Shown here: positions 23,212-62,095 of the stretch, one piece after another | Layout: every line of letters begins with the position of its first letter | Numbering within the stretch: position 1 is the stretch's first letter | Assembly (NCBI GenBank): GCA_009784985.1 | Contig: WQXF01000001.1 | Span: forward strand, 1,540 to 65,539 | Reading direction: 5' to 3' | DNA from: Clostridia bacterium | GTDB taxonomy: Bacteria; Bacillota; Clostridia; Christensenellales; Aristaeellaceae | Length of the DNA stretch: 64,000 nt | Notes under the pieces: model-generated | What the model saw: the letters and a program-made list of their open reading frames with translations, nothing else | The model's database searches: none | Told to the model about the DNA's origin: nothing | Position numbers and translations under genes: made by a program

Positions 23212-24201
23212 TTATGGCGCGCCCAACGCCCGATAAATCTCGTCCCCCTCCGGCGGGGGCAGGGGTGTTTCGCGTTGGCCGCACAGCAGAACTCGCTCCG
23301 GCCCGGCAGTAAATTCGCCGATGATGGCAGCATGAATTTCCTGCTGGCCGAGCGTTTCGCAAAGCATTTCGCCGTTTGGGTGGGCGATCAGCATCACCCC
23401 GCTGGAAATCAGCCGCAAGGGGTCGATGCCCAGCGCATCGCATAGCTTGCGTGTAACCGGACGCACGGGGATGTCGTCCAATCGCAGGCACAGGCCCAAA
23501 CCCGATGCCTCGGCCATCTCCCAGGCTGCGCCCAGCACACCGCCCTCGGTGGCATCGTGCATGGCGGTGGCTCCGGATTGGGCGGCGATCCGGCCTTCGG
23601 GCAGTACGCTCAGTTTGCCGATCAGCCTATGGGCCTCCGACAATTCTAGCTCGGTAAGCGAGTTGCGCAGTTTGTGAGCGGCATCTTGGGCCAGGATGGC
23701 CGTGCCCTCCAAGGCGGCTTGTTTGGTCATCACCAGGGCGTCGCCGGGGCGCGCGCCGCCGGTACGCTTTAGCGCTTCTAACTTTACCCGCCCCACCACC
23801 GTGGAGGAGAGCACCATGCGCCGCACCGCATCCGTGACCTCGGTATGACCGCCGATGATTTGCAGGCCTTGGGCGGCGGCTTCTTCTGCCGCCTCCCGTA
23901 CCACCTTGCCGATATCTTCGGGGGTAGCTTCCGGTGGGGCCAGCACGGTGAGCAGTACACCCAGGGGCTCCGCGCCCGCCGCGGCCACATCGTTCACCGA
24001 AACCTGCACGGCCAGCTGCCCAAGCTTTGAACCCGCTGCGGTGATGGGATCGGTGGATAATACGCAGGCTTCATCGCCAAAGCGCAGGGCCGCGCAGTCC
24101 TCGCCCACGCCCGGACCCAGCAGCACATCGTTGCGGTTGGGGCCCAGCTCGGACAAAATGAGCCGTTGTAATTCAAAGTTGGTTAGTTTGCCTGTGCGCA
24201 T
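23212..24201 (-). CDS. AIR synthase-related (PurM/HypE-like) family protein
   Basis: Pattern GVGEDCAAL...LSTDPIT...VNDVAAAGAEP...IGGHTE. The ATG at 24201 follows GAAGGA. The tracked TTG start at 24219 overlaps the end of ligA. Confidence 0.75.
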   Translation of the reverse strand: MRTGKLTNFELQRLILSELGPNRNDVLLGPGVGEDCAALRFGDEACVLSTDPITAAGSKLGQLAVQVSVNDVAAAGAEPLGVLLTVLAPPEATPEDIGKVVREAAEEAAAQGLQIIGGHTEVTDAVRRMVLSSTVVGRVKLEALKRTGGARPGDALVMTKQAALEGTAILAQDAAHKLRNSLTELELSEAHRLIGKLSVLPEGRIAAQSGATAMHDATEGGVLGAAWEMAEASGLGLCLRLDDIPVRPVTRKLCDALGIDPLRLISSGVMLIAHPNGEMLCETLGQQEIHAAIIGEFTAGPERVLLCGQRETPLPPPEGDEIYRALGAP

Positions 24202-24205
24202 ATCT

Positions 24206-26212
24206 TCATCCTTCACCAATCATTTGCAAAAACTCAGCTTCGTCGATTACCCGGACACCTAGCTTTTGCGCCTTGGCCAGCTTGTTTCCGGCGGCCTCAC
24301 CGGCCAGCACCAGGCCGGTTTTGGCCGATACGCTGGACACGGTTTTGCCGCCGTGGGCTTCGATCAGTTTTTCGGCCTCGCTGCGGGCAAGGGTGGGCAG
24401 TGTGCCGGTGAGAACCACGGTGAGGCCACTGAGCGCACCTTGTTTTAATTCGGCCTGCATGGGTTGCGGCGACACCCCAGCCTCCAGCAGCCGCCGCACC
24501 AACGCCCGGTTTTCCGGCTGGGCAAAGTATTCTACGATGCTAGCCGCTACCACCTGGCCTACTTCATCTACTTGTTGCAGCGTCTCCTCGCTTGCCGAGG
24601 AGAGGGCCTCCAACGTGCCAAAGGCCCGGGCCAAATCCCGGGCGGTTTTGCGGCCCACGTTTGGGATGCCCAGCGCAAATAAAAAGGCATCCAGCGGGCA
24701 ATCTCGGCTTTTTTGCAGTTCTTGTTGCAGCTTATCGGCCTTTTTTGCGCCAAAGCCCCGCAGGGCTATCATCGCTTCAGGGGTCAAAACGTACAGACCG
24801 GCGGGATCGCGCAGGCTCAGTTCGTCGTAAAACAGCTCGGCGGTTTTTTCGCTGAAGGCCTCGATGTCCATGGCGTCGCGACAGGCAAAATGGGCCAGCC
24901 GTGCCACGGTCTGCGGGCGGCAAGTGTTGCGATTTAGGCAAAATAAATGCGCTCCTCGCTCGGCCAGGGGTTGTCCGCAGGCCGGGCAGGCGGCGGGCGG
25001 TTCGATGTTGCGCCGGCCTTCGGTAGTGTCTTCATCTACCACGCCCAATATCTCCGGGATTACGTCGTTGGAGCGGCGCACCCACACCCGCGCGCCGATG
25101 CGTATTTTTTTGCGCTGGATATCACCCCAGTTATTGAGGGTGGCCCGCTGGATCGTGGCTCCAGCTAACTCAACGGGAGCCAGATGAGCCAGGGGCGTAA
25201 GCTTGCCGGTGCGGCCCAACTCCCAGGTTATGTCCAGCAGCTCGGTGGTGGTCTCTTCGGCTTCGAATTTATAGGCCACCGCCCAGCGGGGGAATTTGTC
25301 GGTATAACCCAGGACGTTTCGGGTAGCTTCGTCGCAGATTTTGATCACTGCGCCGTCGATCAGGAAGTCCAGCTCGTTTCGGCGGGCGTCGATATCCTGC
25401 ACTAGTTGCAACGCTTCATCAACTGAATGGGCGATCTGAAAGTAGGGGCTCACCGGCAGTTGATTCTCTTGAATAAAGGCCATCATCTCGCGATGATCGG
25501 CAAAACTTTTTTCTTCAATATAACCCACTTGATAAAAGAAAACGTCTAACGAACGCTCCGCCGTTACTTGAGGATCCAGGTTGCGCAGCGCACCGGCCGC
25601 GCCATTGCGGGCGTTTTTCAGTGGCTCAGCGTGGGTTTTGTTGTATGCTTCCAAAACAGAAAGGCGCATGATTGCCTCGCCGCGCACCTCCATGCGACCA
25701 GCAAACGAAACCCGCTCCGGCACATGACGCACGGCCCGTGCTTGGGCGAGAACCGCCTCGCCCACCTCGCCGTTGCCCCGGGTGGCGGCCTGGGTTAGCA
25801 CGCCGCCCTCGTAGGTGAGGTTGATGGCGATGCCGTCGAACTTATACTCTACGGCATAACACAAAGGCGGGAGCGACCCATCCTTCTCCCGTAGTTTTTC
25901 GCAACGGTTTGCCCAGTCGGCCAGTTCTTGGGGGGACTGGGTCTTGCCCAAACTCCACAGGCGAGCCAGGTGCCGGTGGGGCGCAAAGGCCGCAAGGGTT
26001 GCTCCGCCCACCTGACGGGTGGGGGAGTCGGGCAATCGCACACCGGTTTCTTCTTCCAAACGCCACAGATTATCGTAAAGGGCGTCCCACTCTTTATCCG
26101 ATATCAGCGGTTGATCCAGCACGTAATAAGCGTGGGCGGTTTCGTTCAGGCGATCCACCAACGTGCGCATGCCTTCCGGCTCGGGTGCGTTGGTGGCGGT
26201 TTTATGTTCCAT
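24206..26212 (-). CDS. ligA: NAD-dependent DNA ligase
   Basis: The KxDG adenylation motif is present (EYKFDGIAI). There is a Zn finger CPACGQPL...C, HhH repeats and a C-terminal BRCT. Confidence 0.95.
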   Translation of the reverse strand: MEHKTATNAPEPEGMRTLVDRLNETAHAYYVLDQPLISDKEWDALYDNLWRLEEETGVRLPDSPTRQVGGATLAAFAPHRHLARLWSLGKTQSPQELADWANRCEKLREKDGSLPPLCYAVEYKFDGIAINLTYEGGVLTQAATRGNGEVGEAVLAQARAVRHVPERVSFAGRMEVRGEAIMRLSVLEAYNKTHAEPLKNARNGAAGALRNLDPQVTAERSLDVFFYQVGYIEEKSFADHREMMAFIQENQLPVSPYFQIAHSVDEALQLVQDIDARRNELDFLIDGAVIKICDEATRNVLGYTDKFPRWAVAYKFEAEETTTELLDITWELGRTGKLTPLAHLAPVELAGATIQRATLNNWGDIQRKKIRIGARVWVRRSNDVIPEILGVVDEDTTEGRRNIEPPAACPACGQPLAERGAHLFCLNRNTCRPQTVARLAHFACRDAMDIEAFSEKTAELFYDELSLRDPAGLYVLTPEAMIALRGFGAKKADKLQQELQKSRDCPLDAFLFALGIPNVGRKTARDLARAFGTLEALSSASEETLQQVDEVGQVVAASIVEYFAQPENRALVRRLLEAGVSPQPMQAELKQGALSGLTVVLTGTLPTLARSEAEKLIEAHGGKTVSSVSAKTGLVLAGEAAGNKLAKAQKLGVRVIDEAEFLQMIGEG

Positions 26213-26257
26213 GCGCGACGCTCACTCCTTCAATCGGCGGTAAGACGATGGTGGGGG

Positions 26258-26340
26258 CAGCGGGACGCCGAGGGCGGCGTCCCCTACAGGGTTACGGCCA
26301 TGCGTTTCTGTAGGGGATGCCGCCCTCGGCATCCCGCCGC
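26258..26340. repeat. GC-rich nested palindromic repeat, copy 2 (inverted relative to copy 1), between pcrA and ligA
   Basis: gcagcgggacgccgagggcggcgtcccctac ... gtaggggatgccgccctcggcatcccgccgc. The central spacer is the reverse complement of the spacer in copy 1. Confidence 0.8.
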
Positions 26341-26351
26341 TTTTGCCTAAT

Positions 26352-28625
26352 CTATTTTGCAACTTTTACAATGGGCGCGATGGATATAGCAAATTCCTTT
26401 GCGCCGTAAGCGGCAAATTCAATGGTAATGCGGGCGTCGGCGCCTTTGCCGTTAAGACCGGTGACATTGCCTTCGCCAAATTTTTTGTGCAGAACCCGGT
26501 CGCCCACGTCAAACAACGTGGGCCCAACCGCCTGCCCGGCAGCAATGGAAGGCACCATCACCGCGTTGCCAAAGCCCTTTTGTACGCCAGGTATGCGCAG
26601 CGTGCCTGCACGGCCGCCGCCAAAGTCGGTGATGGGTTGGCGTTGGGCGCGGGCGCTTTGTGGCTCCCGGCGCTCCTGGCCGGTAGAAGGGAAAGCCGTT
26701 TCCTTGCGTAAGGCGCCGCTTTCGTCCAGCAGCCGCCGGGGAATTTCACTTAAGAAGGGGGAAGGGGGATTGTGCAGCATTTGGTTAAACAGCATGCGTT
26801 GGGTGGCGTGGGAAAGGTGCAGCATATCCCTGGCGCGGGTGATGCCCACATAGCATAGACGGCGCTCCTCTTCCAAACGTTCCGGGTCCATCAGCGACCG
26901 GCCGCTGGGGAAGATGCCCTCCTCCATGCCGGTGATAAACACGATAGAGAATTCCAGGCCCTTGGCGCTGTGCAGCGTCATCATGGTAACGGATCGTTGC
27001 TCGCCTTGCAGGCCGTCTAGATCAGTCACTAAAGCAACGTTCTCTAAAAAGCCTTCTAAAGTGGGCTCCTCGGCCTTTTGTGCAAATTCCTGTACCGCGC
27101 CGCCGAATTCCTTCATGTTTTCCAGCCGGTTTTGCGCTTCTTCGGTACGCTCCCGCTCATATTGGGCGGCCAGCCCGGTTTCTTCGATCAGCAAGTCTAC
27201 AAAGGCGGGCAACTCCATGGTGTGGCGCAGGGCGGTGAGTTTGGTGAGCAGTTGGGCAAAATCGCCTACGCACTTGCGGGCACGGGAGGCTAGGGATTCC
27301 GGTGGCTCCAGCATCGCCGAAAAAAGCGAATACTGCTTTCGTTCGGCATGGCCTACCAGCTCTGCGATCGTAGCATCGCCAATGGAGCGTTTGGGTTGGT
27401 TGATGATCCGGCGCAGGGACACGTCGTCGGCGGGATTAACGATCACCCGCAGATAGGCCACGATGTCGCGAATCTCCTTGCGGTCGTAAAAGCGTGTGCC
27501 GCCAAATACCCGGTAGGGGATGCCCGCGCGCACCATCATTTCTTCCAGCACGCGGGATTGGGCGTTGACCCGGTACAGCACCGACATCTTTTGATAGCTA
27601 TGGCCCGCTTGGGTGAGCTGATGCATACGGTCGCAGACCCAGGCGGCTTCCTCCCGCTCGTCTCCGGCCTTAAACAGGCAGATGGGCCGCCCTTCGCCGC
27701 GTTCGGTCCACAGGGCTTTCTCTTTTCGGCCCTCGTTGCGGGCGATCACGTTGTTGGCGGCATCCAATATATTGGCGGTGGAGCGATAGTTCTGCTCCAG
27801 CTTGATCACCGTGCACGGGGCAAAATCCTGCTCAAAATCCAATATATTGCGCAGATCAGCGCCCCGCCAGCCGTAGATGGACTGATCGTCGTCACCTACC
27901 ACGCATAAGTTTTGATGGGTGGCAGCCAGCAGTTTGATCAGCATGTACTGGGCATAGTTCGTATCCTGGTACTCATCTACGTGGATGTATTCAAAGCGCT
28001 GCTGATAGGCCTCCAACACCGGCGGGTGGGCGGCGAACAACTCTAGGGTTTTGACCAGCAGATCGTCAAAATCCAGGGCGTTGGCGGCACGGAGCCGCTC
28101 CTCGTAAGCCACGAACAGATCGTGGACCATTTGCATGCGAAAATCCCGGCTGGAAGCGGCAAACCACTCGTCCGGGCTGAGCAATTTGTTTTTTGCATCA
28201 GAAATCTTTGACTTAACCTCCCGGGGGGGAAGCAGCTTATCATCAATGTTTTGTTTTTTGAGCAGCTCCTTAATCAGGGTCATCTGATCGTCGTCATCGT
28301 AGATGGTGAAGGCACGGGTATACCCCAGTTTGTCGATGTCCCGGCGCAACATCCGGGCGCAACAAGCATGGAAGGTACACACCCAGGCTTCGGCGGCGGC
28401 CTGGGGAGCCAGGGAATCCACCCGCTCCCGCATCTCGCGGGCGGCTTTGTTGGTAAAGGTGATGGCAAGGATCCGGTAGGAGGGGACGCCCTTGTCCAGC
28501 AGGTTGGCGATGCGATAGGTTAGCGCCCGCGTTTTGCCGGAGCCGGCCCCGGCCAATATCAGCAGCGGGCCCTCGGTGGTTTCCGCCGCCAGCCGCTGCT
28601 GCGGGTTGAGCATGCTCAAGTCCAT
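26352..28625 (-). CDS. pcrA: ATP-dependent DNA helicase PcrA (UvrD/Rep family)
   Basis: Motifs: AGAGSGKTRAL, DEYQDTN, TLHSAKGLEF, VGITRA. The ATG at 28625 follows GGAGGGAAAGG and shares one nucleotide with the yerC stop (TAATG). Confidence 0.9.
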   Translation of the reverse strand: MDLSMLNPQQRLAAETTEGPLLILAGAGSGKTRALTYRIANLLDKGVPSYRILAITFTNKAAREMRERVDSLAPQAAAEAWVCTFHACCARMLRRDIDKLGYTRAFTIYDDDDQMTLIKELLKKQNIDDKLLPPREVKSKISDAKNKLLSPDEWFAASSRDFRMQMVHDLFVAYEERLRAANALDFDDLLVKTLELFAAHPPVLEAYQQRFEYIHVDEYQDTNYAQYMLIKLLAATHQNLCVVGDDDQSIYGWRGADLRNILDFEQDFAPCTVIKLEQNYRSTANILDAANNVIARNEGRKEKALWTERGEGRPICLFKAGDEREEAAWVCDRMHQLTQAGHSYQKMSVLYRVNAQSRVLEEMMVRAGIPYRVFGGTRFYDRKEIRDIVAYLRVIVNPADDVSLRRIINQPKRSIGDATIAELVGHAERKQYSLFSAMLEPPESLASRARKCVGDFAQLLTKLTALRHTMELPAFVDLLIEETGLAAQYERERTEEAQNRLENMKEFGGAVQEFAQKAEEPTLEGFLENVALVTDLDGLQGEQRSVTMMTLHSAKGLEFSIVFITGMEEGIFPSGRSLMDPERLEEERRLCYVGITRARDMLHLSHATQRMLFNQMLHNPPSPFLSEIPRRLLDESGALRKETAFPSTGQERREPQSARAQRQPITDFGGGRAGTLRIPGVQKGFGNAVMVPSIAAGQAVGPTLFDVGDRVLHKKFGEGNVTGLNGKGADARITIEFAAYGAKEFAISIAPIVKVAK

Positions 28626-28945
28626 TACGCCTTTCCCTCCATTCCCTTTCCAACAACTCGGTCTAGCACGGTGTTGTATCCATCGGAGCCGTAAGTTAAA
28701 CAACGATTGACCCGGCTGATGGTGGCGGTGCTTGCGCCGGTTTCGCCTGCAATATCTTGATACGTAATTTGCTCACGGAGCAGGCGCGCCACCTCGATCC
28801 GCTGGGCCATTGCTTGCACCTCGGTGATGGTGCAAAGGTCGTCCAGCAGTTGATAACACTCCTGTGGGGTTTCCAGGGCGAGCAGCACGCGCACCAGCAG
28901 GTCGGTTTGGGGATTCCTGCGCGGCATCTCTTTTTTGTCCTTCAT
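28625..28945 (-). CDS. yerC: YerC/YecD family TrpR-like protein
   Basis: The sequence CTITEVQAMAQRIEVARLL...YQDIAGETGASTATISRVNRCL is typical of the family. Confidence 0.8.
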   Translation of the reverse strand: MKDKKEMPRRNPQTDLLVRVLLALETPQECYQLLDDLCTITEVQAMAQRIEVARLLREQITYQDIAGETGASTATISRVNRCLTYGSDGYNTVLDRVVGKGMEGKA

Positions 28946-29275
28946 TTTGAGGAGCCTCCATTATGCTCTTAGTATAAAAAGCCGCCAAAGGCGCCCGACC
29001 TTCGGCATGCTCCGTGGCGCGGAATATAAAAAGAGTATAACATAAATTGGCCGGAAAAGGAAGGTCTGGCGGCTTTTTTTATAGAGAAAGCGGGGTTTTG
29101 CCAACCGGGCGCTTCCATAGTTTTCCCATTTTGGTGTGGTGTATGCGGGGTGGGGGCGTTGTTGGTCGGTTTATGCATGTTGGTGTGTAAAAAGAATGCC
29201 TTTGGTTCATTTGCCAAAGTGCTTGTGTTCAGTCATTGAGTGTGCTACTATATATAGTGTCATGGAGCTGTGGCA

Positions 29276-29953
29276 ATGCGGGAAAATCCTAATTTATGGG
29301 AGCGCCAAATGAAACATGAAAAAATGATACTCGTTGAAGGTGTATCAAATGCAGGAAAAACTGCTCTTTGTAAAGGCTTATCCGAAACCTACGGATTTGT
29401 AGTCATACCAGAAGGTATCAGGTATCTTGAAAAACAAACTGGAAAATTTGAGGCTGAACTAATGAGCATACCTACAACCCTAGAAATTGAATGCAATAAT
29501 CAGAAAACTCTTTTCGATATGGAGCTGCAAAGAATTATTGATGCTAATCGCCTTTTGTCGAAAAGCACCAGCGTTGTTATCGACAAATCCGCTCTTTCCA
29601 TTATGTCGACGGCGTTGGCTTTTGAAAAAATAAAAGGACTTAAAGGTGCATTTGACCATGTGAATGTTTTGTACAGTAAGTATAGAGAGGATATTTTGCA
29701 ACAATCTTTAAGAGAGCCAAATGGTATCGTCTTATTATCCGTTTCTCATGATAGTGCGAGGGCTAGGAATGCTAAGCGAAGCCACGTTCTAGAAGCGGAT
29801 TGGATTTCGGAAAAAATCCAAACAATTCAAGATGGATTTTTGAAAAACTGGATATCAAACATGCAGATTCCATCCATAATCATCGATACTTCTCCAAAAA
29901 GTTTGCTGGAGGTATTGGATGAGGTTGCTCGGTTCATTTTTAACTTAGAGTAA
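29276..29953 (+). CDS. P-loop NTPase with nucleoside/nucleotide-kinase-like architecture (function unknown)
   Basis: Walker A GVSNAGKT lies close to the N-terminus, with a hhhhD element VVIDKS and an Arg/Lys-rich lid-like segment SARARNAKRSH. Alternative start at 29309 (MKHEKMILVEG, with TGGGAG 6 nt upstream). AT-rich codon usage. Confidence 0.6.
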   Translation: MRENPNLWERQMKHEKMILVEGVSNAGKTALCKGLSETYGFVVIPEGIRYLEKQTGKFEAELMSIPTTLEIECNNQKTLFDMELQRIIDANRLLSKSTSVVIDKSALSIMSTALAFEKIKGLKGAFDHVNVLYSKYREDILQQSLREPNGIVLLSVSHDSARARNAKRSHVLEADWISEKIQTIQDGFLKNWISNMQIPSIIIDTSPKSLLEVLDEVARFIFNLE

Positions 29954-29974
29954 TAGCAGGCGAGGTAAGTATTA

Positions 29975-30880
29975 ATGGTAGATTTGCATTGCCATACGAA
30001 ACATTCCGACGGGACATGGAATACCGTACAGCTCTTGCAGCAAGCAGAGAGGAAAGGAATTACTCTTCTGTCGATTACAGATCATGACACATTAGAGTCC
30101 TATTTTGATTTGTTTGGTATGGATTATTCACAATACTACTCAGGGGAAATTCTTGTCGGTTGTGAGTTTGCTGCCGTTTTTAATGGCATAAGAATTGAAT
30201 TGCTGGGATATAGCTTCGACTTATTCGTTGTTCAAAAATGGCTAGATGATTTCTATCGGAGGGTAGAGAAAAAAAAGAGCTTTTGCGAAGAGTACGATCA
30301 ATTATTGGCGTTGTGCAAAAAACATAATGTAGCTGTAGATGCTGGTGATATGATTAATCCATCTATAGAGTATCCAATAGCAGCAATACATAGAAATATC
30401 AAGCAGCACCCGCAAAATCGCCATTTATTTGATAGAGCGAGTTGGGTTAGCCAAGAAGTTTTTTTCAGAAACTGCACGTGCAATGTTAATTTTCCTTTGC
30501 ATTTAGAGTGCTCTACTCAAGTTCCGAAAGCAGAAGATATTGCAGACGTTATTAGAGAAGCTGGGGGTTTTGTTTTTCTTGCGCATGCTTTTGCTTATTC
30601 TTTGAGTGATTACAATGCTTTTCTAAATCAAATAGCCGATGCAAGAGGGATTGATGGTTTAGAAGTGTATTGCTCAAAGCATAGTACAAGCCAAGCAAAT
30701 TATTTGAGCAATTTTTGTCGAAAGAGGGGACTGCTAGTATCTGGTGGTTCAGATTGTCATGGAATGAAGAATCCGTCAAGAAAGCTAGGCACTGGTTTTG
30801 GAGGTTTATGTGTGAATGAAAAGGAAATAATGGCTTGGGCCGGACAAAGGAATTCAGATCAATATAAAGTGCACAACTAG
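29975..30880 (+). CDS. PHP-domain phosphoesterase, TrpH/YciV-like
   Basis: Motifs MVDLHCHTKHSDG, ITDHD, FLAHAF and GGSDCHG. GAGGT lies 9 nt before the ATG, 22 nt after the preceding gene. Confidence 0.7.
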   Translation: MVDLHCHTKHSDGTWNTVQLLQQAERKGITLLSITDHDTLESYFDLFGMDYSQYYSGEILVGCEFAAVFNGIRIELLGYSFDLFVVQKWLDDFYRRVEKKKSFCEEYDQLLALCKKHNVAVDAGDMINPSIEYPIAAIHRNIKQHPQNRHLFDRASWVSQEVFFRNCTCNVNFPLHLECSTQVPKAEDIADVIREAGGFVFLAHAFAYSLSDYNAFLNQIADARGIDGLEVYCSKHSTSQANYLSNFCRKRGLLVSGGSDCHGMKNPSRKLGTGFGGLCVNEKEIMAWAGQRNSDQYKVHN

Positions 30881-30906
30881 AGATAGTTGCGTTTTCTTCA
30901 GAAATA

Positions 30907-32367
30907 TTACCTTGCTGTTTTATGTTTTTTTAATTGCAAGTTTATTAGGCTATATATCGGCCCTAGGTTAGATAAGAGAAAAGCAAAGGCTGTTGAAAAA
31001 AGCAAAGATATCCTCTTTGGCTTATTCATTCCGTGCATATATGCAATTTTTAAAGGATAAGTATATGTGCATGCTATCATGAAAATATAGGCGGCCAGTG
31101 CTGAAGTAAGTGCGATTACATTTGTTGCGCATATTGAATAAATGAAGGATAGAACGACACAAAAAGGGAAAAAGAGCCACGACAGGGTTCCGCGAATTTG
31201 ATTCAGCCAAAAAAGGAAACCGCTCAATGTACGACGGCCGCTTTTTTCGACAATGGAATTGTATATGCTTGTGAATTGAAAAGCAGTTCTAAACCATACG
31301 GCATGCTGTTTGACTTGGGTACGTAGATAATTTGGAGTTTCGGCCAACTCCAATGAAGGAAGGGCGCAAACGAAAATGTTTTCGTGTCGCAGATAGAAGC
31401 TCATGTATATATCTTCACACCAAAAGTCTGTTTGAAATCCTCCCATTTCTAACAATTTATCCAATCTAACGAACATACCATGTCCCACTACATGATTTCG
31501 TAGCAATTGTGAGCGCATAAAGCTATTCATGAGTCCATTCCTTAGTTCAAAATTTGATTGGTACATAGCAAACCCCTTCATTATTGGGGATAAAGCATTT
31601 ACATTTGATATCATGATTGAGTATTGTTGCATAATTACAGGATTTTTATTGAGATGAATACACTTTAATGTATCCCTAAAAGTCTCTTTATCAGGCATGC
31701 TGTCAGCATTGTATACGCAAATATATCTTTTCTCTTTAGGAATAGGGGAGGGGAGCAGCTCTTCCAGATTTCCTAATAGAAAATTCAATTGGTCGGCCAT
31801 GTACCCATTATTATGCGGGTAGTGAATGATGTGCAATCTATCCTCAAGGTGAAGTCTTTTAATGAAGCGCTGAACAATTTCAAAAGTGCTGGGTGCAATA
31901 TGTATCGCTTCTTCTACGGCAGATACTGTTTTGTCAGGATTGTGCTTACAGAAAATCTGTAATGCTTTTAGATTGGATGTGGGCAAAATGGTGTTATACT
32001 TGTTAATCAAAACACTAATATCCACATTGCGCATCAGGTCTTTGACGAGCGCTTGCTTATTTGCTAGGTTTGCTTGTTTTTCATAGCTTTCTTTTTCAGT
32101 AGTGACAACAATGATCGATATGTTTAAATGCGCTGGTGCTATTTTTAGAAAATGCAAGAGCGTTGTCTCAATTATATCCTGCTCCCTTAAGCAAGGAATG
32201 ACGACCGATATTTGACAATCGCTGCTGAGGGGTGCAGAAAGGTACCGCATTTTTAGCTCCTTGTATTTTTTGCAAAACACAGAAGACTTTACCCAATTCC
32301 AAATGCCGATGAGTAGTTCCAGCAGAAGGAAGATTTGAAGGAAGAGCGGAATATAATTTCTTAACAT
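30907..32367 (-). CDS. Family 2 glycosyltransferase with N- and C-terminal TM segments (synthase-like)
   Basis: An N-terminal TM is followed by ISVVIPCLREQDIIETT and a DxD-like YNADS. WCEDIYMSFYL precedes QHAVWFR, which resembles the Q(R/Q)xRW region. Four to five C-terminal TM helices. AT-rich. Confidence 0.65.
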   Translation of the reverse strand: MLRNYIPLFLQIFLLLELLIGIWNWVKSSVFCKKYKELKMRYLSAPLSSDCQISVVIPCLREQDIIETTLLHFLKIAPAHLNISIIVVTTEKESYEKQANLANKQALVKDLMRNVDISVLINKYNTILPTSNLKALQIFCKHNPDKTVSAVEEAIHIAPSTFEIVQRFIKRLHLEDRLHIIHYPHNNGYMADQLNFLLGNLEELLPSPIPKEKRYICVYNADSMPDKETFRDTLKCIHLNKNPVIMQQYSIMISNVNALSPIMKGFAMYQSNFELRNGLMNSFMRSQLLRNHVVGHGMFVRLDKLLEMGGFQTDFWCEDIYMSFYLRHENIFVCALPSLELAETPNYLRTQVKQHAVWFRTAFQFTSIYNSIVEKSGRRTLSGFLFWLNQIRGTLSWLFFPFCVVLSFIYSICATNVIALTSALAAYIFMIACTYTYPLKIAYMHGMNKPKRISLLFSTAFAFLLSNLGPIYSLINLQLKKHKTAR

Positions 32368-32509
32368 GGTTAGGACGTCAAGCCTCCCAATTCAGCGTTT
32401 TGATCATTGATGGAAAGAATAAGCAATGGTATATTAGCACACAACCAATTATGATGCAAGACCCCTTTAAGGCGGTTTGTTTTCATCTTCCGAAAACGTG
32501 CATAAACCC

Positions 32510-32560
32510 TTGCGCGATAAAGCCATTTATGCTACACTACGCATGAAGAAAACGTTTTAT
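32510..32560 (+). promoter_or_regulatory. Putative promoter and LacI-type operator upstream of the GH94 gene
   Basis: TTGCGC (32510-32515), a 17-nt spacer, then TACACT (32533-32538). The palindrome AAAACGTTTT (32549-32558) matches the CG-centred core of LacI/GalR-family operators. A LacI regulator is encoded downstream. Confidence 0.45.
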
Positions 32561-32590
32561 TACATGCGAAAACTTCATAGGAGGAGCGTT

Positions 32591-34975
32591 ATGCAATACG
32601 GTCATTTCGACGAAAAAAACAGGGAATATGTTATCACCAATCCCGCCACGCCGTCGGCATGGGCAAACTACCTGGGTTCACCCGAGTACGGCGCGATCAT
32701 TTCCAACAATGCGGGCGGCTATAGCTTTGTGAAATCAGGAGCCGCCGGGCGCATTACCCGGTATCGGTTTAATTCGGTGACGGCGGATCAGCCCGGCCGG
32801 TATATCTACATTCGTGATATGGAGGACGGCGATTATTGGTCGGCATCCTGGATGCCTGTGGGCAGGTCTTTGGACGCCTATCGTTCGGAATGCCGCCACG
32901 GCACGGCCTACACCGCCATCGCATCCCAGTATAATGAAATTAAAACCGAAACCCTTTACTACGTGCCCCAGAACGCTACCCACGAAGTATGGCGGCTGCG
33001 CGTTACAAACGAGAGCGCCAAGCCACGCAAGCTGGCCATCACCGGCTATGTGGAGTTCACCAGCGACCCTTTCTACGAGCAGGATCAGGTGAATCTGCAA
33101 TACACCCTTTTTATCACCCGCACATACTTCCACGGCAACCATATCTTACAACGCTTTAACGAAAACTTTGCCGATCCCACCAAAGAACGTTTCTTTGGTG
33201 TGATGGGCGCGGATGTAAGCGCTTATTGCGGCGACCGGGACAAGTTTGTGGGCTCCTACCGGGGCTACCACAATCCTGCCGGTATCGCGGAGGGACTAAA
33301 GGGTGATCTGAATTACAACGGCAACTCTTGCGGTGCGCTGCAGAGCGATATTGTGCTGCAGCCGGGCGAATCGAAAGAGATCATTTACTTGCTTGGCCAA
33401 AAGCCCCAAGCCGAGGCCGCAGCCCTAATCGCCGGTTACAGTGCGGCTGGCCGGGTTGACCGCGAGTTGGCGGAACTAAAGGCCTTCTGGCATAGCAAGC
33501 TGGACAATCTGCAGGTAAAAACCCCCGACGATAAGTTCAACAACATGATCAACGTGTGGAACGCCTACCAATGCTTTATCACGTTCCTATGGTCGCGGGC
33601 GGCGTCGTTCCAGTATTGCGGCTTGCGTAATGGGTTCGGCTATCGGGATACGGTGCAGGACATTCAAGGCATCATCCACCTGGCGCCCGACTTGGCCCGC
33701 AAGCAGCTGGAGTTCATGCTGTCGGCCCAGGTGTCCAACGGCGCGGGCTTGCCCTTGGTGAAGTATGATCATAACCCCGGCCATGAGGATACGCCCGACG
33801 ACGCTTCTTACGTAAAGGACACCGGCCACCCTAGCTACCGTGCCGACGATGCGTTATGGCTTTTCCCCACCATCAAAAAGTACATCGATGAGTCGGGAGA
33901 AATAACCTTCCTGGATCATGAGGTGCTGTTTGCCAACGTGAACGAAAAGGCATCGGTGTATGAGCACCTGAAGCGTGCCATACAGTTTTCCATGGACAAC
34001 CTAGGCTCCCACGGCATGCCCGCCGGTCTCCATGCCGACTGGAACGACTGCCTGCGCCTGGGCAAGCGCGGCGAATCTACCTTTGTGCTGTTTCAGCTGT
34101 ACTACGCCCTGCGCATCCTAAAAGGGTTTGCGGTGATCAAAGACGACAAAGTGTACGTTCACAAACTGGATGGGCTCTTGGCCGATATCAAACAGAAGAT
34201 CGACAGCCTATGCTGGGATGAAGACCGCTGGATCCGGGGCTTCCGCGAAGACGGTACAATCATTGGCAAGCGGGATGACTTGGAGGCGTCCATGTGGCTT
34301 AATCCGCAGACTTGGGGCGTGATATCAGGGGCATCCACACCAGAGCGCGGGGCAAAAACCATGGATTCGGTCTATCGGGAGCTCAACACCCCCCACGGCA
34401 TTATGCTGATGTATCCGGCTTACCAAAACCACGCTTTTGATGGCGCGCTGGCGGTTTGTTACAACAGGGGCGCAAAGGAGAACGCCAGCGTCTTCTCCCA
34501 AACCCAGGGATGGGCCATACTAGCTGAAGCCTTGCTGGGGCGTGGCGGCCGCGCGTATGAATACTGGCGTGGGGCCAGCCCCGCAACCATGAACGAAGAT
34601 GCGGATCGCCGCGTGATTGAGCCTTATGTGCACGGCCAATTTGTGGAGGGCGCCGACAGCCCCTTTGCCGGGCGCGCCCATGTCCATTGGCTCACCGGCA
34701 CCGCCTCCACGGTAATGGCTGGGTCGGTGGAAGGCATACTGGGCCTGCGCCCCACCCCGGATGGTATCTTGGTTAGCCCCTCCATCCCCACAAGCTGGAC
34801 GGACTGGAGTATGGTAAAGAAGCTGCGGGGCAAAACGCTGCGCATCACCATTCAGAATCCCAATGGCTCACAGCACGGGGTGAAGGCTGTTACGGTGAAT
34901 GGGAAAAAGCTGGACGGCGTTTTCATCCCCGATACTGCGCTAGCCGAAAACAACGACATATTGATTCAAATGTAA
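32591..34975 (+). CDS. GH94 family glycoside phosphorylase (cellobiose/chitobiose phosphorylase-like)
   Basis: AGGAGG precedes the ATG at 32591. The N-terminus MQYGHFDEKNREYVITNPATPSAWANYLG is typical of GH94, and the protein is ~794 aa. Confidence 0.8.
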   Translation: MQYGHFDEKNREYVITNPATPSAWANYLGSPEYGAIISNNAGGYSFVKSGAAGRITRYRFNSVTADQPGRYIYIRDMEDGDYWSASWMPVGRSLDAYRSECRHGTAYTAIASQYNEIKTETLYYVPQNATHEVWRLRVTNESAKPRKLAITGYVEFTSDPFYEQDQVNLQYTLFITRTYFHGNHILQRFNENFADPTKERFFGVMGADVSAYCGDRDKFVGSYRGYHNPAGIAEGLKGDLNYNGNSCGALQSDIVLQPGESKEIIYLLGQKPQAEAAALIAGYSAAGRVDRELAELKAFWHSKLDNLQVKTPDDKFNNMINVWNAYQCFITFLWSRAASFQYCGLRNGFGYRDTVQDIQGIIHLAPDLARKQLEFMLSAQVSNGAGLPLVKYDHNPGHEDTPDDASYVKDTGHPSYRADDALWLFPTIKKYIDESGEITFLDHEVLFANVNEKASVYEHLKRAIQFSMDNLGSHGMPAGLHADWNDCLRLGKRGESTFVLFQLYYALRILKGFAVIKDDKVYVHKLDGLLADIKQKIDSLCWDEDRWIRGFREDGTIIGKRDDLEASMWLNPQTWGVISGASTPERGAKTMDSVYRELNTPHGIMLMYPAYQNHAFDGALAVCYNRGAKENASVFSQTQGWAILAEALLGRGGRAYEYWRGASPATMNEDADRRVIEPYVHGQFVEGADSPFAGRAHVHWLTGTASTVMAGSVEGILGLRPTPDGILVSPSIPTSWTDWSMVKKLRGKTLRITIQNPNGSQHGVKAVTVNGKKLDGVFIPDTALAENNDILIQM

Positions 34976-34984
34976 GGAGTTTAC

Positions 34985-36004
34985 ATGAGCGTTACCATAC
35001 GTGATGTGTCCCAAAAATGCGGGTTGTCAATCTCCGCGGTCTCCAAAGCGCTTAACAATTATAGCGATGTGAGCGAGGAGACCCGCAGGCGCGTGTTCCA
35101 GGCAGCGGAAGAGCTGGGGTATTATCCCAATGCTGTGGCGCGCAGCCTAAAAACCAACCGCACATACAACATCGGCATCATCTTGGATGATGAGATGGAT
35201 GATCACCTGCTGCACAGCTATTTTGTGGTGTTATTAAACGGCTTTAAGCGGGAGACCGAGCGGCTTGGCTACGCGATTACCCTGGTAAACCGCAACATCG
35301 GCACCCGGCGGTATACCTTTTTAGATCATTGCAGATACCGCAACCTAGACGGGGTATGCGTGCTGTGCGCAGATTTTTATGATCCGGAGATTGGCGACTT
35401 GGTGCGCAGCAGCCTGCCCACCGTAACCATCGATCACTTGTTTAGCGGCAAGGATTGTGTGCTCAGCGACAACAAACAGGGCATGCGGGATATACTCAAC
35501 CATGTTTTGGCCATGGGCCACGGGCGCATCGCGCATATTTACGGAACGCCCGCCAGCGTAACCGATGCGCGGCTGGCTGCATACTACGAAGTGATGCATG
35601 AAAACGGTTTGGTATTGCCCGAAGGTTATGTGACGCAAAGCGAATATCACAGCACAAGATATGCTTTTGAGGCTACGCAACGTTTGCTGGAGCTGGATCC
35701 CCGGCCCACCTGCATCTTGATGACCGACGATTATTCGGCGCTGGGTGGCATGGAAGCCATTGCCCAGGCTGGCTTGCGCATTCCCGAGGATATCTCCATT
35801 GTGGGATACGACGGCAGCTTTATGTTGCAAAAGCTGCGCCCCCGCCTAACCACTTTGCGGCAAGACGCTGAGGCCATCGGGACCCGGGCGGCAGCCCGGC
35901 TGATCCAACGTATTGAAGACCCGTCGGCCCCGGCTGGGTATCCGGATATTGTGCCGGGCGTGTTGGTGGAAGGCGAAACCGTGATGAAAGTGAGCCCAAT
36001 ATGA
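34985..36004 (+). CDS. LacI family transcriptional regulator
   Basis: The HTH is VTIRDVSQKCGLSISAVSKALNN...ARSLKT, and the C-terminus is a periplasmic-binding-like domain. Confidence 0.9.
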   Translation: MSVTIRDVSQKCGLSISAVSKALNNYSDVSEETRRRVFQAAEELGYYPNAVARSLKTNRTYNIGIILDDEMDDHLLHSYFVVLLNGFKRETERLGYAITLVNRNIGTRRYTFLDHCRYRNLDGVCVLCADFYDPEIGDLVRSSLPTVTIDHLFSGKDCVLSDNKQGMRDILNHVLAMGHGRIAHIYGTPASVTDARLAAYYEVMHENGLVLPEGYVTQSEYHSTRYAFEATQRLLELDPRPTCILMTDDYSALGGMEAIAQAGLRIPEDISIVGYDGSFMLQKLRPRLTTLRQDAEAIGTRAAARLIQRIEDPSAPAGYPDIVPGVLVEGETVMKVSPI

Positions 36005-36143
36005 ACCTCTTTTGAGGCCTCTTATAACAGTATATGAACATCCCTTAAGGGGTGAAGGCACTTCTACTCTGGAACATGATTAGAGCACATTCGTGTCAGG
36101 GCTATGTTTTTGAAAACTCTAAAATTCTCAAGGAGGATGTATT

Positions 36144-36892
36144 GTGGACAAATTGAGAAATCTGGCAGCTGTCTTAATCAACGGGTGTTTGCCTCTTTTG
36201 GCCATACCGATAAATGGTTATTTGATTGATAGGAGTATACCGCAAGAGTATTCATTGCTATTTTTGATAGCGCTTTCTATCTGCATATCACTTTTTTTCT
36301 ACTTTATTATCCCTGGTATTTTATTCAATCTATATTTTGTCAGGTGGATTTTCGACCCCCTCGCCAGATTTGAAGGCTGTTGGGCCAGTATTATTGATAT
36401 AGAAAACAATACCGATGGCCGTGTATGCGGTTTTTTTAGGTTTATTTACGATAGACACGAAAGCAATTACTTATATGAAGGTCAAAATTATAATATAAAA
36501 GGAGAAACAATTACATCGTTTGCGGCGAGTGATATTCAATATAAAAAAGAGATAAATGGACTTCGCTTCTTTGGAACAGCTAAAAGAACCAATGAAAATC
36601 CAGCTGTTGTTAATAGGACGACTACTATAAATACATGGGGAGAAATAAGTTTTTCTGGAGGAAAAAAAGATCCTTCAATAAGAGCTTGAACTCAGTAAAT
36701 GGCTTTTTTATTAATGACAGCAACGAACTCTTTAGAGCTAGGTATGTAGCAATGAGAGTAACTACTGGCAGGATAAGGCAACTAATGGAAATCCCAACAA
36801 TGAGAAGTAAAAATTTAGAAATGCAAAATGAACGTGCAATATATGCAGTTAAGCACTATAAGGAATATAAAAAATCCTTTGTTGGTTTGTAG
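36144..36892 (+). pseudogene. 3-TM hypothetical protein interrupted by a -1 frame change at an A7 tract (36662-36668); either frameshifted gene, homopolymer error or programmed frameshift
   Basis: ORF 36144-36689 and ORF 36635-36892 overlap in adjacent frames. Reading GGA GGA AAA AAA with one extra A, or a -1 slip, gives a continuous ...SFSGGKKRSFNKSLNSVNGFFIND... of 249 aa. GTG start with AAGGAGG upstream. AT-rich. Confidence 0.55.
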
Positions 36893-37087
36893 TTAATCCA
36901 ATATTATGAGGAGCGGAAATGATGAAGAAACTCATGCGAGCAAAAACTGAAGAATGCTCTGGATTTTTTCGCTTTGTTCACAATAATGGGGTGCAAGAGT
37001 AAAAGATGGAGGTCATGTAAGAATAAAAATGGATAATATGCGGGGAACAATAGGCCACGACGCAACTTATTGTTCACTGTTAGTTGT

Positions 37088-60482: not shown

Positions 60483-61382
60483 ATGCTAAACGGAGATCTG
60501 CTTGTGAATGCCAGAAAAAGGTTCGGCGAAAGAATTGTACTTAAGGCAATCATACAAGTGTTGCCTATGTTGGGCATTACCATTGGAATTAATTTCATTG
60601 GAAAGAATGCTTTGCTTGTCGATTCGGTAACAGGGGAGTTGACTGTTTTGGGATGGTCGCTTACTTTTGTCGTCGTAATTTCTGTTTTTCTGTATAATTA
60701 TCTCGCATATCGACATGAATTGCTTGAGAAGAGAGACAGGTTGCACAAAGAAGGAGTATCAAGAAAAATTAACGAGTCGATTTATAATTTGTTTTTGCAG
60801 CGAATTATTTACTGTAAAAACCAGTTAAACTCTAATAGGGATATAGATTTATCGAATTTTGATAAGTACATTGGAAGCTGTACCATTAAGGAAATATGCA
60901 ATTTGCTTTCTGATTTGCTGGGGATAGATAAGCACAGAGTGTTGATCGTCTTACTTTCTAAACGCTTAAAGAAGTGGGAAGCTCTGGCCTCCGTCAATGC
61001 CGATAATACGCAAAAGCTAGATGATCTTCTGGTGAGCGATAAATCTGCGTTAGCGCAATTTCTTGATTCTGGCCACACAGAATGGTATATCATGGACAAA
61101 AAAGAAGCAGTAAAAGAAGACAGGTATTTGAATGATTCAAGAGACATGGTAGAAGAGACGGGTTCACTTTATAGCTATCGTTTTAAGACTGCAAACGCCA
61201 CAAAAGCCGATATCTCCGACATGATTATTTCTATATCAACATATGGAGCTGTGTTATCAGAGAAAGACATTGGAATAGTTCGAGATAATATTCTTTTCTC
61301 ATTTCAGAATTTAGTGATGTATGATGACGTGGTTAATAAAGTTAGGATAAAAGAAATGAAAAGAGAGCTGAAGTTAAGTTGA
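60483..61382 (+). CDS. Hypothetical 2-TM protein with ~200-aa cytoplasmic domain (possibly GAF-like sensor fold)
   Basis: The TM helices are IVLKAIIQVLPMLGITIGINFIG and LTVLGWSLTFVVVISVFLYNYLAY. The remainder is soluble with no recognised motif. Alternative GTG start at 60504, after GGAG. AT-rich. Confidence 0.55.
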   Translation: MLNGDLLVNARKRFGERIVLKAIIQVLPMLGITIGINFIGKNALLVDSVTGELTVLGWSLTFVVVISVFLYNYLAYRHELLEKRDRLHKEGVSRKINESIYNLFLQRIIYCKNQLNSNRDIDLSNFDKYIGSCTIKEICNLLSDLLGIDKHRVLIVLLSKRLKKWEALASVNADNTQKLDDLLVSDKSALAQFLDSGHTEWYIMDKKEAVKEDRYLNDSRDMVEETGSLYSYRFKTANATKADISDMIISISTYGAVLSEKDIGIVRDNILFSFQNLVMYDDVVNKVRIKEMKRELKLS

Positions 61383-62095
61383 TTGGTATTATTGGCGCTA
61401 TGTTAAGCGAAGTTGATGGTCTAAAGGGAGAGATGGATCTAGAAAGGATCGATTGCTTTTCTTGTATAGATTTTTATGTGGGGCAAGCATATGGAGCAAA
61501 TGTCGTGGTGGCAGCCTGTGGTGTGGGAAAAGTAAATTCCGCTATATGTGCGCAGGTAATGATTTATAAATATAACCCAGAATTTATTATCAACATAGGT
61601 GTAGCAGGCAGTCTGAGTTCGAAAATTGAAGTGCTTGATCTTGTGGTAGCAGATTCTGTTGTGCAGCACGATGTAGATACATCGGCCGTAGGGGATCCTG
61701 TTGGTATGATCTCGGGGATCAATTTGACATACATCCCTTGTGATGCAGGCGAGATGGCAATAGGTACTATTAGTAAAAATTCTGAGATACTTAGAATTCA
61801 TCATGGAACAATAGCATCTGGTGATCAATACATTGTCGATAAAAAAAAGAAAAGAGATATTGCTTCGCGATTCAATGCAGTTGCAGTCGATATGGAAAGT
61901 GGAAGTATAGGGCAAGTATGCCATATAAACCAGGTGCGCTTTTGTGCGCTCAGAGCGATTTCCGATAGAGGTGATGCTGCGGAGTACCTTGAATTTTTGG
62001 CTGATGCAGTGGAAAGAGCACTAATTGCACTCCGTATCCTGCTATCTGAGTTATCTAATACCGCAAGCAAATCTGAGCAAGGGAGTGAGAGATAA
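61379..62095 (+). CDS. mtnN: PNP_UDP_1 family nucleosidase, MTA/SAH nucleosidase (MtnN/Pfs)-like
   Basis: IGIIGAMLSEV, ACGVGKVNSA, NIGVAGSL and AVDMESGSIGQVC...LRAISD match the MtnN pattern. TTG start in a TTGA overlap with the upstream stop. AT-rich. Confidence 0.75.
   Translation: MIGIIGAMLSEVDGLKGEMDLERIDCFSCIDFYVGQAYGANVVVAACGVGKVNSAICAQVMIYKYNPEFIINIGVAGSLSSKIEVLDLVVADSVVQHDVDTSAVGDPVGMISGINLTYIPCDAGEMAIGTISKNSEILRIHHGTIASGDQYIVDKKKKRDIASRFNAVAVDMESGSIGQVCHINQVRFCALRAISDRGDAAEYLEFLADAVERALIALRILLSELSNTASKSEQGSER

Follow-up and report, generated by a model that had tools for sequence, protein, structure and literature searches.

An AT-rich islet of three genes in a Clostridia genome

We analyzed a 64,000-nt stretch of DNA from a Clostridia bacterium (contig WQXF01000001.1; hereafter the window), which contains an AT-rich islet at positions 29200..32575. 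The islet holds three intact genes: a P-loop kinase (29276..29953, plus strand, 225 aa), a metal-dependent PHP phosphoesterase of the TrpH/YciV type (29975..30880, plus strand, 301 aa) and, convergent to these, a membrane synthase-like glycosyltransferase of family 2 (GT2; 30907..32367, minus strand, 486 aa). Gaps of 21 nt and 26 nt separate the kinase from the PHP gene and the PHP gene from the GT2 gene, respectively. The survey of related loci described below identifies the islet as the three-gene form of a mobile cassette, gained by horizontal transfer, in which the conserved core is formed by the GT2 and the kinase and the PHP protein is a frequent but replaceable accessory.

The islet differs markedly in composition from the DNA around it. 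By direct count its GC content is 0.384, and the value is even across the three genes (0.378-0.389), compared to 0.582 in the left flank (24200-29100), 0.559 in the right flank (32600-36000) and 0.542 in the window as a whole. In a 300-nt sliding profile, GC drops from 0.53-0.65 over pcrA and yerC to 0.34-0.42 within ~29.2-32.6 kb and then returns to 0.51-0.60, which places the left edge at ~29.15-29.2 kb and the right edge at ~32.55-32.6 kb. The flanking genes are yerC (Trp_repressor), pcrA and ligA on one side and genes for a GH94 enzyme and a LacI protein on the other; the GH94 gene most likely starts at the ATG at 32591, which is preceded by a GGAGGAG ribosome-binding site. An earlier note on this DNA, made from the sequence alone, had described the locus in much the same way. 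Its drop in GC, foreign composition, left edge, flanking genes, gene coordinates, quoted kinase and PHP motifs and 26-nt gap are all reproduced here, whereas its 70% GC for pcrA was a single-line value, its right edge (32.45 kb) lies ~100 nt too far to the left, and the gap that it gave as 22 nt is one nucleotide shorter.

The same note had seen no integrase, tRNA or obvious direct repeat, and our searches agree: the window's list of open reading frames (ORFs) contains no integrase at the islet, no tRNA was found between 20 and 42 kb of the window, and no convincing direct repeats flank the islet. Thus, none of the classical hallmarks of a genomic island (integrase or recombinase, tRNA or gene target, flanking repeats) was found in the window. 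A 12-nt inverted repeat, GGTTTATGCA(T/C)G, does occur at both edges, with its left copy at 29168..29179 (plus strand, GGTTTATGCATG) and its right copy at 32497..32508 (minus strand, GGTTTATGCACG). These are the only two copies within the 64 kb, a count that is not significant (at least two matches in 25 of 100 shuffles); their bracketing position is suggestive of relic element ends, and the repeat is a possible, unproven relic of a terminal repeat. A consensus scan also returned a weak terminator-like hairpin on the minus strand at 30872..30891, in the 26-nt convergent junction between the PHP and GT2 genes, as a pattern match only. Relatives were compared, as the note had proposed. Two more assemblies of this species carry an identical islet at the corresponding position, and a search for an islet-free relative by exact match to YerC returned only same-species records, each with the islet.

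Predicted activities of the encoded proteins

The kinase carries the Walker A motif GVSNAGKT (within VEGVSNAGKT), the motif VVIDKS, in which D103-K104-S105 stands in place of ERS/DRY, and an arginine-rich SARARNAKRSH segment with LID residues R164/R168. Residues 20-209 match the Pfam deoxynucleoside kinase (dNK) family PF01712 at 35.4 bits (gathering cutoff 27). A PHROG family of phage thymidylate kinases was matched at 47 bits, which we read as relatedness only, and the dTMP kinase model of NCBIfam (TIGR00041) at 23.4 bits, well below its equivalog cutoff of 83.25. An AlphaFold2 (AF2) model built from a 40-sequence input had a mean predicted local distance difference test (pLDDT) score of 95. 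When this model was searched with Foldseek, the best matches were deoxyadenosine kinases (8puu, 2jaq), deoxycytidine kinase (dCK) and thymidylate kinases (TMPKs), with template-modeling (TM) scores of 0.6-0.72 (dCK, 0.72) at only 14-20% sequence identity. The modeled structure thus makes the protein a kinase of the dNK/TMPK fold, of the nucleoside or nucleoside monophosphate (NMP) kinase type, in keeping with the note's view of it as kinase-like.

This kinase belongs to a rare, GT2-associated subfamily: an exhaustive phmmer search of 1.84 billion proteins yielded 53 cluster representatives, and a word-indexed homology search returned only the kinase itself. Family members keep the Walker A motif, the D-(K/R)-S motif and the LID arginines. 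In an alignment to reference sequences, E46 of the window kinase falls on the catalytic glutamate of dCK and dNK, a position that is glycine in some family members. Among the defense families of PADLOC-DB v2, the kinase weakly matches VakA (E = 2.3e-4).

The GT2 is only weakly recognized by Pfam (Glyco_trans_2_3, 30.1 bits). Its AF2 model (pLDDT 91) comprises an N-terminal transmembrane helix, a GT-A domain with a ~80-aa helical insert at residues 91-172, interface helices and three C-terminal transmembrane segments. Hydropathy places the hydrophobic segments at residues 4-26, ~391-411, 414-436 and 453-471, so the note's 486-aa protein with membrane segments at both ends stands as described; we prefer this 486-aa start because the N-terminal helix is kept in homologues. 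A profile search of PDB sequences with the GT2 found no match, and the PgaC_IcaA model (TIGR03937) scored 20 bits against a cutoff of 422. Foldseek, in contrast to these sequence searches, aligned the model with PcManGT, BcsA, hyaluronan synthases and chitin synthases (E = 2e-10 to 1e-8), with TMq values of 0.45-0.59 overall, 0.54-0.59 for the hyaluronan synthases, and 10-14% identity.

Five motifs can be read in the GT2: IPCLREQ (57), YNADS (219), VVGHG (293), WCEDIY (316) and KQHAVWF (353). In the family alignment, WCEDIY, with its ED, and KQxAVWF, with its Q...W, are invariant and lie ~37 residues apart, a spacing as in cellulose synthase. Other canonical positions are substituted: DDxSxD is replaced by VVTTxKE, PxYNE by IPCLREQ and DxD by NADS, and the arginine of QxxRW is valine or alanine. 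Because the canonical donor motifs are replaced in this way, the donor nucleotide may be an unusual one. We also noted a GT2 homologue, P0238, whose C-terminus switches into the last third of the kinase family (...RNKTR...LSKAWID...YQNEFYE...); this looks like a deletion joining two adjacent genes and not like a natural fusion protein.

In the PHP protein the metal-ligand motifs are all readable: DLHCHT(KHSDG), TDHD, GCE, LAHA and GGSDCHG. Pfam PHP was matched at 34.8 bits. The best NCBIfam model was nside_bi_sphtase (NF041577; 3',5'-nucleoside bisphosphate phosphatase) at 78.8 bits against a cutoff of 400, followed by RNaseRnm (NF047791; RNase RNM) at 77.9 bits against an equivalog cutoff of 375. 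The nearest solved relatives are 3e0f (5e-16), to which the N- and C-terminal halves both align, 9etk, 7ug9 (RNase AM) and 2yb1 (Cv1693). These relationships bear out the note's placement of the protein in the TrpH clade, away from CpsB, and suggest that it is likely a nucleotide phosphatase or a short-oligonucleotide 5'-3' exonuclease. Some homologues (P0081, P0090; 450-459 aa) are fused to a NUDIX domain, another tie of this PHP clade to nucleotide substrates.

The GT2 and kinase genes form the conserved core of a cassette

To place the islet in a wider context, we scanned for related loci with a seven-sequence kinase alignment, which identified 16 loci in species-representative genomes and 57 in metagenomes, mostly from the human gut. 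After ORF calling and clustering, the 73 loci yielded 70 kinases that fell into 21 lineages at 80% identity. Partners were counted as genes within three genes of the kinase.

A GT2 of this same subfamily accompanies the kinase in every one of the 21 lineages, which excludes chance adjacency. All other partners are less constant: the PHP protein occurs in 12 lineages (as homologues linked to the cassette, 37-46% identical to that of the window), a nucleoside 2-deoxyribosyltransferase (NDT) in 10, an S-adenosylmethionine (SAM)-dependent methyltransferase in three, an adenylation-carrier-condensation (A-PCP-C) protein resembling nonribosomal peptide synthetases (NRPSs) together with a major facilitator superfamily (MFS) transporter in another three, and a His_Phos_1 phosphatase with an upstream protein of unknown function in two. 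Since the GT2 partners the kinase in 21/21 lineages and the PHP protein does so in 12/21, we regard the GT2 as the heart of the system. The lineages span Clostridia, RF39/Mollicutes-like Bacilli, Lactobacillaceae and Tissierella, and when two GT2 homologues were looked up independently, both had a kinase homologue immediately downstream. Pairwise identities co-vary between kinase and GT2 (r = 0.83), GT2 and PHP (r = 0.89) and kinase and PHP (r = 0.79), as expected for inheritance as a unit; shared species phylogeny contributes to this correlation too.

These observations revise the note's picture of the locus. The genes do remain together outside this lineage, a test that the note itself had named as able to refute its proposal, and its central idea, that the acquired DNA carries a conserved accessory system not described before, holds. 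The invariant pair is nevertheless GT2 and kinase instead of kinase and PHP, and the GT2, which had been cast as a neighbor that the pair possibly regulates, is itself part of the core, to which a fuller operon adds a fourth gene, the NDT. An ordinary core-genome dNK is rejected as a reading; the kinase lies in an accessory cassette and not among genes of core nucleotide metabolism.

The commonest layout is a tight, co-directional NDT-GT2-kinase-PHP operon in which genes overlap or abut. Compared to this arrangement the window copy lacks the NDT and has its GT2 inverted, and this convergent kinase-PHP/GT2 arrangement recurs at a distant locus, L090, whose GT2 is 38% identical. The NDT is well supported (Pfam Nuc_deoxyrib_tr, 87 bits), and its nearest structures are true NDTs and not CMP hydrolases. 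The His_Phos_1 phosphatase is likewise a clear match (78 bits); by eye, the protein upstream of the GT2 in that variant shows a DGAHR motif. A further variant, reached through a GT2 homologue, combines a YjjG-like HAD protein (best match, pyrimidine 5'-nucleotidase/YjjG), a SET-type sugar-efflux MFS protein (139 bits), a kinase, a soluble GT2 and a membrane GT2. Three unrelated families, PHP, His_Phos_1 and HAD, therefore fill the same slot, which argues that phosphatase activity itself is required. A second exporter-bearing variant carries an EntS-like MFS protein, and together with the SET-type transporter this gives a hint of export.

In the Lactobacillaceae-type variant represented by L022 (9928-12804; L. 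helveticus DSM 20075), L015 and L068, a 958-aa protein downstream of the GT2 consists of a DltA-like adenylation domain, a carrier domain and a 400-aa C-terminal domain. Neither Pfam nor the PDB yielded a match for the last of these, in which an HHxxD motif, read by eye, is invariant; it is possibly a condensation domain or acyltransferase of divergent sequence. Genome-mining lists include unnamed NRPS families of L. jensenii and L. helveticus without a known product, among which the cassette locus might be included.

Across the gene maps surveyed, a nucleotidyltransferase, dehydrogenase or epimerase for a sugar donor was never found within the cassette. Rfam searches of the islet (E up to 1) and of 19 cassette loci returned no riboswitch that could name a ligand. 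The note had recognized no named system, and neither PADLOC nor PHROG nor the literature that we consulted on the gene combination, on VakA and on CGA synthase supplied one; as far as we could find, the cassette has not been described. It is widespread in low-GC gut Firmicutes and apparently uncharacterized.

The cassette moves as a discrete unit

The four-gene unit moves as a discrete block of 3.3-3.5 kb. Within one kinase lineage, contigs are 99% identical only from the NDT to the PHP gene plus ~230 nt (L018, 6244-9772), and their flanks are unrelated. Similarly, the 82% identity between L020 and L021 is limited to the four genes.

At L020 (5894-12294), L065, L023 and L073, the four genes travel with a 66-aa ORF and the gene for a large serine recombinase (554-563 aa). 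The resulting insert of ~5.3 kb splits a gene for a PBP5/DacB-like D-Ala-D-Ala carboxypeptidase, of which L026 and L075 have intact copies. Such an arrangement is reminiscent of the recombinase-excised intervening elements found in sporulation genes. The His_Phos_1 variant, also with a serine recombinase, lies directly after a truncated gene for a class-B penicillin-binding protein (PBP) that retains PBP_dimer and the start of the transpeptidase domain (L080, 4787-12579; L081; L083). An ORF past the recombinase may be the remainder of this protein, in which case a second PBP gene may serve as an insertion target. A transposase or integrase also accompanies the cassette at some loci. When contigs were scanned and tblastn was run for relatives of the kinase and GT2 in viral contigs, phage genomes and plasmids, the sole match was one cyanobacterial plasmid gene at 25% identity.

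Most hosts have genomes of 22-29% GC, and the cassette matches them in composition. It is conspicuously AT-rich only in the window (0.38 vs 0.57) and in Schleiferilactobacillus (0.44 vs 0.58 and 0.48). These values suggest low-GC Firmicutes as the reservoir and horizontal acquisition of the window copy. Foreign composition apart, the window copy has no unique feature.

Several other observations concern mobile or compositionally foreign DNA at these loci. L042 (9760-12594), compared to L018 of the same cassette lineage, carries an extra block of ~2.8 kb after the PHP gene that encodes proteins of 530-565 aa and 157 aa, neither with a Pfam or PHROG match, and is flanked by a duplicated segment of ~140 nt; this block is possibly one more small insertion element. 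The window itself has a second AT-rich islet at 60483-62095 (GC ~0.39-0.45) with two overlapping, co-directional ORFs, one of 299 aa without a solid Pfam match and one of 238 aa in the PNP_UDP_1 nucleoside phosphorylase superfamily (139 bits). This is another nucleoside-enzyme pair on compositionally foreign DNA. A third AT-rich stretch (36000-37000, GC ~0.36) directly follows lacI and includes a 181-aa ORF (36144-36689, plus strand) whose N-terminus is hydrophobic and for which Pfam gave no match; this ORF is also present in a second assembly (L007).

A possible biosynthetic pathway and its alternatives

The reading that we favor, tentatively and at somewhat under an even chance, is that the cassette would encode a pathway running from kinase to membrane GT2 to phosphatase and yielding a glycosylated nucleoside- or nucleotide-derived product. 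The kinase would generate a 5'-phosphorylated nucleoside-type intermediate, and at the membrane the GT2 would glycosylate this intermediate or extend it with a short glycan. A nucleotide phosphatase (the TrpH-type PHP protein in the window; His_Phos_1 or the YjjG-like HAD protein elsewhere) would then strip the phosphate and so commit or activate the product. Release or export would follow, the product being either a nucleoside-derived metabolite that carries sugar or a surface glycoconjugate. In fuller versions of the cassette, the NDT would supply or alter the nucleoside, and the A-PCP-C NRPS module with its MFS exporter, or the methyltransferase, would tailor the product. Pathways in which a glycosyltransferase acts on a phosphorylated acceptor ahead of a phosphatase include OtsA/OtsB, SPS/SPP and GpgS/GpgP. 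We infer the order kinase-GT2-phosphatase because such glycoside pathways glycosylate the phosphorylated acceptor and then dephosphorylate it. All of the identifiable accessories (NDT, TrpH-type PHP, YjjG-like HAD) act on nucleosides or nucleotides.

Several points weigh against this pathway. For every member, the activity, substrate and product are predicted ones. The glutamate at the position of E46, which in dNKs acts as the base on the 5'-OH, is not kept across the kinase family, and the phosphoryl group may therefore go to an acceptor other than a nucleoside 5'-OH. The GT2 lacks both the usual uracil-binding aspartate motif and the QxxRW arginine, which makes its donor uncertain. The usual products of membrane GT2s of the synthase type are polymers or lipid-linked sugars and not small nucleoside glycosides. 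Two of the variants (methyltransferase; NRPS/MFS) carry no phosphatase. Finally, close homologues of the PHP protein are also found by themselves in unrelated surroundings, as with the first two examined, and the PHP protein may be a recruited generalist.

Three other explanations deserve consideration. The GT2 could act alone as a synthase of exopolysaccharide or oligosaccharide, in the manner of HasA, type-3 capsule or NodC enzymes, with the nucleoside enzymes feeding or recycling its donor nucleotide, for example by boosting the pool for an unusual NDP-sugar or by clearing inhibitory NDP or NMP. Its closest structural matches (BcsA, hyaluronan and chitin synthases, PcManGT), its one N-terminal and three C-terminal transmembrane segments, the cellulose synthase-like spacing of ED and Q...W and the weak PgaC/IcaA matches are all consistent with such an enzyme, as is the second, TuaG-like soluble GT2 of one variant, and precursor-supply genes are common in synthase operons (hasABC, cps3DS). 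The sugar-donor enzymes that these operons would lead one to expect are nevertheless never part of the cassette, a kinase and a phosphatase acting on one nucleotide carrier would be futile, four transmembrane helices are few for a translocation channel, and the canonical UDP-binding residues are altered. The NDT, the A-PCP-C NRPS module and the SET-type efflux pump also fit polymer synthesis poorly, and we regard this explanation as unlikely. A salvage module for deoxynucleosides and nucleotides in reduced-genome gut bacteria (NDT, dNK and nucleotide phosphoesterase), to which the GT2 would be a separate hitch-hiker, seems very unlikely. NDT plus deoxynucleoside kinase is the classical salvage route of Lactobacillus, the hosts are low-GC Firmicutes with small genomes and the NDT is nearest to true transferases; yet the universal partner is the GT2 and not the NDT (21 lineages vs merely 10), the window copy and several variants have no NDT, and a hitch-hiker would hardly overlap or abut the other genes in one operon or co-vary with the kinase.

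The mobility of the cassette raises the question of a nucleotide-centered anti-phage or conflict system, in which the GT2 would be an effector or exporter. The kinase, PHP protein and NDT would then act during infection, either by draining or converting the pool of (deoxy)nucleotides or by producing a nucleoside analogue that terminates chains. AT-rich cargo that travels as a discrete 3.3-3.5 kb unit into differing contexts, in the company of large serine recombinases, a transposase or an integrase, would suit this idea, as would the VakA match of the kinase and its resemblance to phage thymidylate kinases. The 150 non-redundant neighbors include matches to type II restriction-modification (R-M), NsnA/B, AriA, GmrSD and PDC-S05, and L088 adjoins an R-M pair. 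Most neighbors are housekeeping genes, however, and in most hosts the cassette has the GC of its surroundings and shows no island features. Neither the PHP protein nor the GT2 has a PADLOC match, the sensor, nuclease or NTPase module of typical defense systems is missing, no homologues were found in the phage and viral collections searched, and the NRPS/MFS and sugar-efflux variants look biosynthetic. On balance we consider a defense role rather unlikely.

A bolder form of the kinase-GT2-phosphatase pathway can be imagined, which we think doubtful but worth stating. The cassette might represent a new class of mobile mini-pathways by which human-gut Firmicutes secrete a glycosylated nucleoside analogue, aminoacylated or methylated in some lineages, that would act as an antibiotic or as an anti-phage agent resembling a chain terminator. 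The phosphorylated intermediate would be self-protected and unmasked by the PHP, His_Phos or HAD enzyme, and the GT2 would couple transfer to a nucleotide acceptor with membrane passage, a reaction type that to our knowledge is not known for the synthase-like GT2 family. Were a secreted nucleoside-derived glycoside to be the product, the cassette would represent a compact natural-product family of the gut microbiome missed by current finders of biosynthetic gene clusters and defense systems, and the chemistry of synthase-type GT2s would extend beyond polymers. The cassette is small (two to four genes), mobile and seen in many metagenome contigs from the human gut, and it lends itself well to testing as a 3.3 kb operon with natural 'knock-outs' of each accessory and three interchangeable phosphatases. 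The serine-recombinase elements that interrupt PBP genes are of separate interest for the biology of mobile elements.

Comparison with known systems

Each of the proteins belongs to a known superfamily and none reaches an equivalog threshold; the combination corresponds to no PADLOC system or Rfam element. Some resemblance exists to small clusters for antibiotics that contain a nucleotide or nucleoside. The tyrocitabine (tyb) cluster of Lactobacillus iners, whose antibiotic contains a nucleotide, pairs an MFS exporter with an A-PCP-C NRPS responsible for acylating ribose hydroxyls of that compound (PMC13235161), the same pair as in the Lactobacillaceae variant of the cassette. A homologue of the TyrRS-like TybB is said to occur in all related tyb clusters (PMC13235161). 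Neither the islet nor, in any of the gene maps, the cassette has such a gene, and TybC, which with TybB defines the tyb cluster, is absent from the cassette as well; we therefore treat the likeness to tyrocitabine as an analogy and not as membership. The pathways for blasticidin S and mildiomycin, both cytosine-nucleoside antibiotics, pair an NDT-family enzyme (a hydrolase) with a glycosyltransferase (PMC3715490). Unlike the cassette, the tyb, blasticidin S and mildiomycin clusters contain neither a membrane GT2 nor a dNK-like kinase, and the window copy, unlike those clusters, has neither NDT nor NRPS.

Two systems join a P-loop protein to a PHP protein, as in the window. The note had drawn a loose analogy to the first, BY-kinase/CpsB, which does not survive: the kinase has a nucleoside/NMP-kinase fold without the Walker A'/B architecture of BY-kinases, its translation shows no C-terminal tyrosine cluster (as the note had itself observed), and the PHP protein is TrpH-type and not CpsB-type. 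The second, the PHP-ATPase Ppl, is one large fusion protein, and the window PHP has no PADLOC match. A paper on L. johnsonii glucan concerns GtrA/GtrB and is unrelated.

Individually, the proteins resemble well-studied enzymes. With dNK, dCK, the deoxyadenosine kinase of M. mycoides and TMPK, the cassette kinase shares its fold, the Walker A motif, the D/E-R/K-S motif and the LID arginines. RNase AM and the 3',5'-adenosine bisphosphatase Cv1693 have the metal motifs and inserted domain of the window PHP, which, at ~78 bits against equivalog cutoffs of 375-400, is not an orthologue of these TrpH/YciV enzymes. Hyaluronan synthase, BcsA, chitin synthase/NodC, PgaC/IcaA and PcManGT have in common with the GT2 a GT-A domain, interface helices, C-terminal transmembrane helices and the ED and Q...W motifs, whereas the cassette GT2 lacks DDxSxD and the QxxRW arginine, has the ~80-aa insert and is always paired with a kinase. 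We know of no synthase that requires a kinase partner.

In gene logic, the cassette resembles OtsA/OtsB, SPS/SPP and GpgS/GpgP, which likewise place a glycosyltransferase between enzymes that add and remove phosphate. Their glycosyltransferases are soluble members of GT20, GT4 and GT81 that act on sugar or glycerate phosphates, whereas the cassette combines a GT2 with four transmembrane segments, a nucleoside/NMP-kinase fold and nucleotide-type phosphatases. The phosphatase superfamily varies among these pathways (OtsB is a HAD enzyme and mycobacterial GpgP a histidine phosphatase), just as it does among variants of the cassette.

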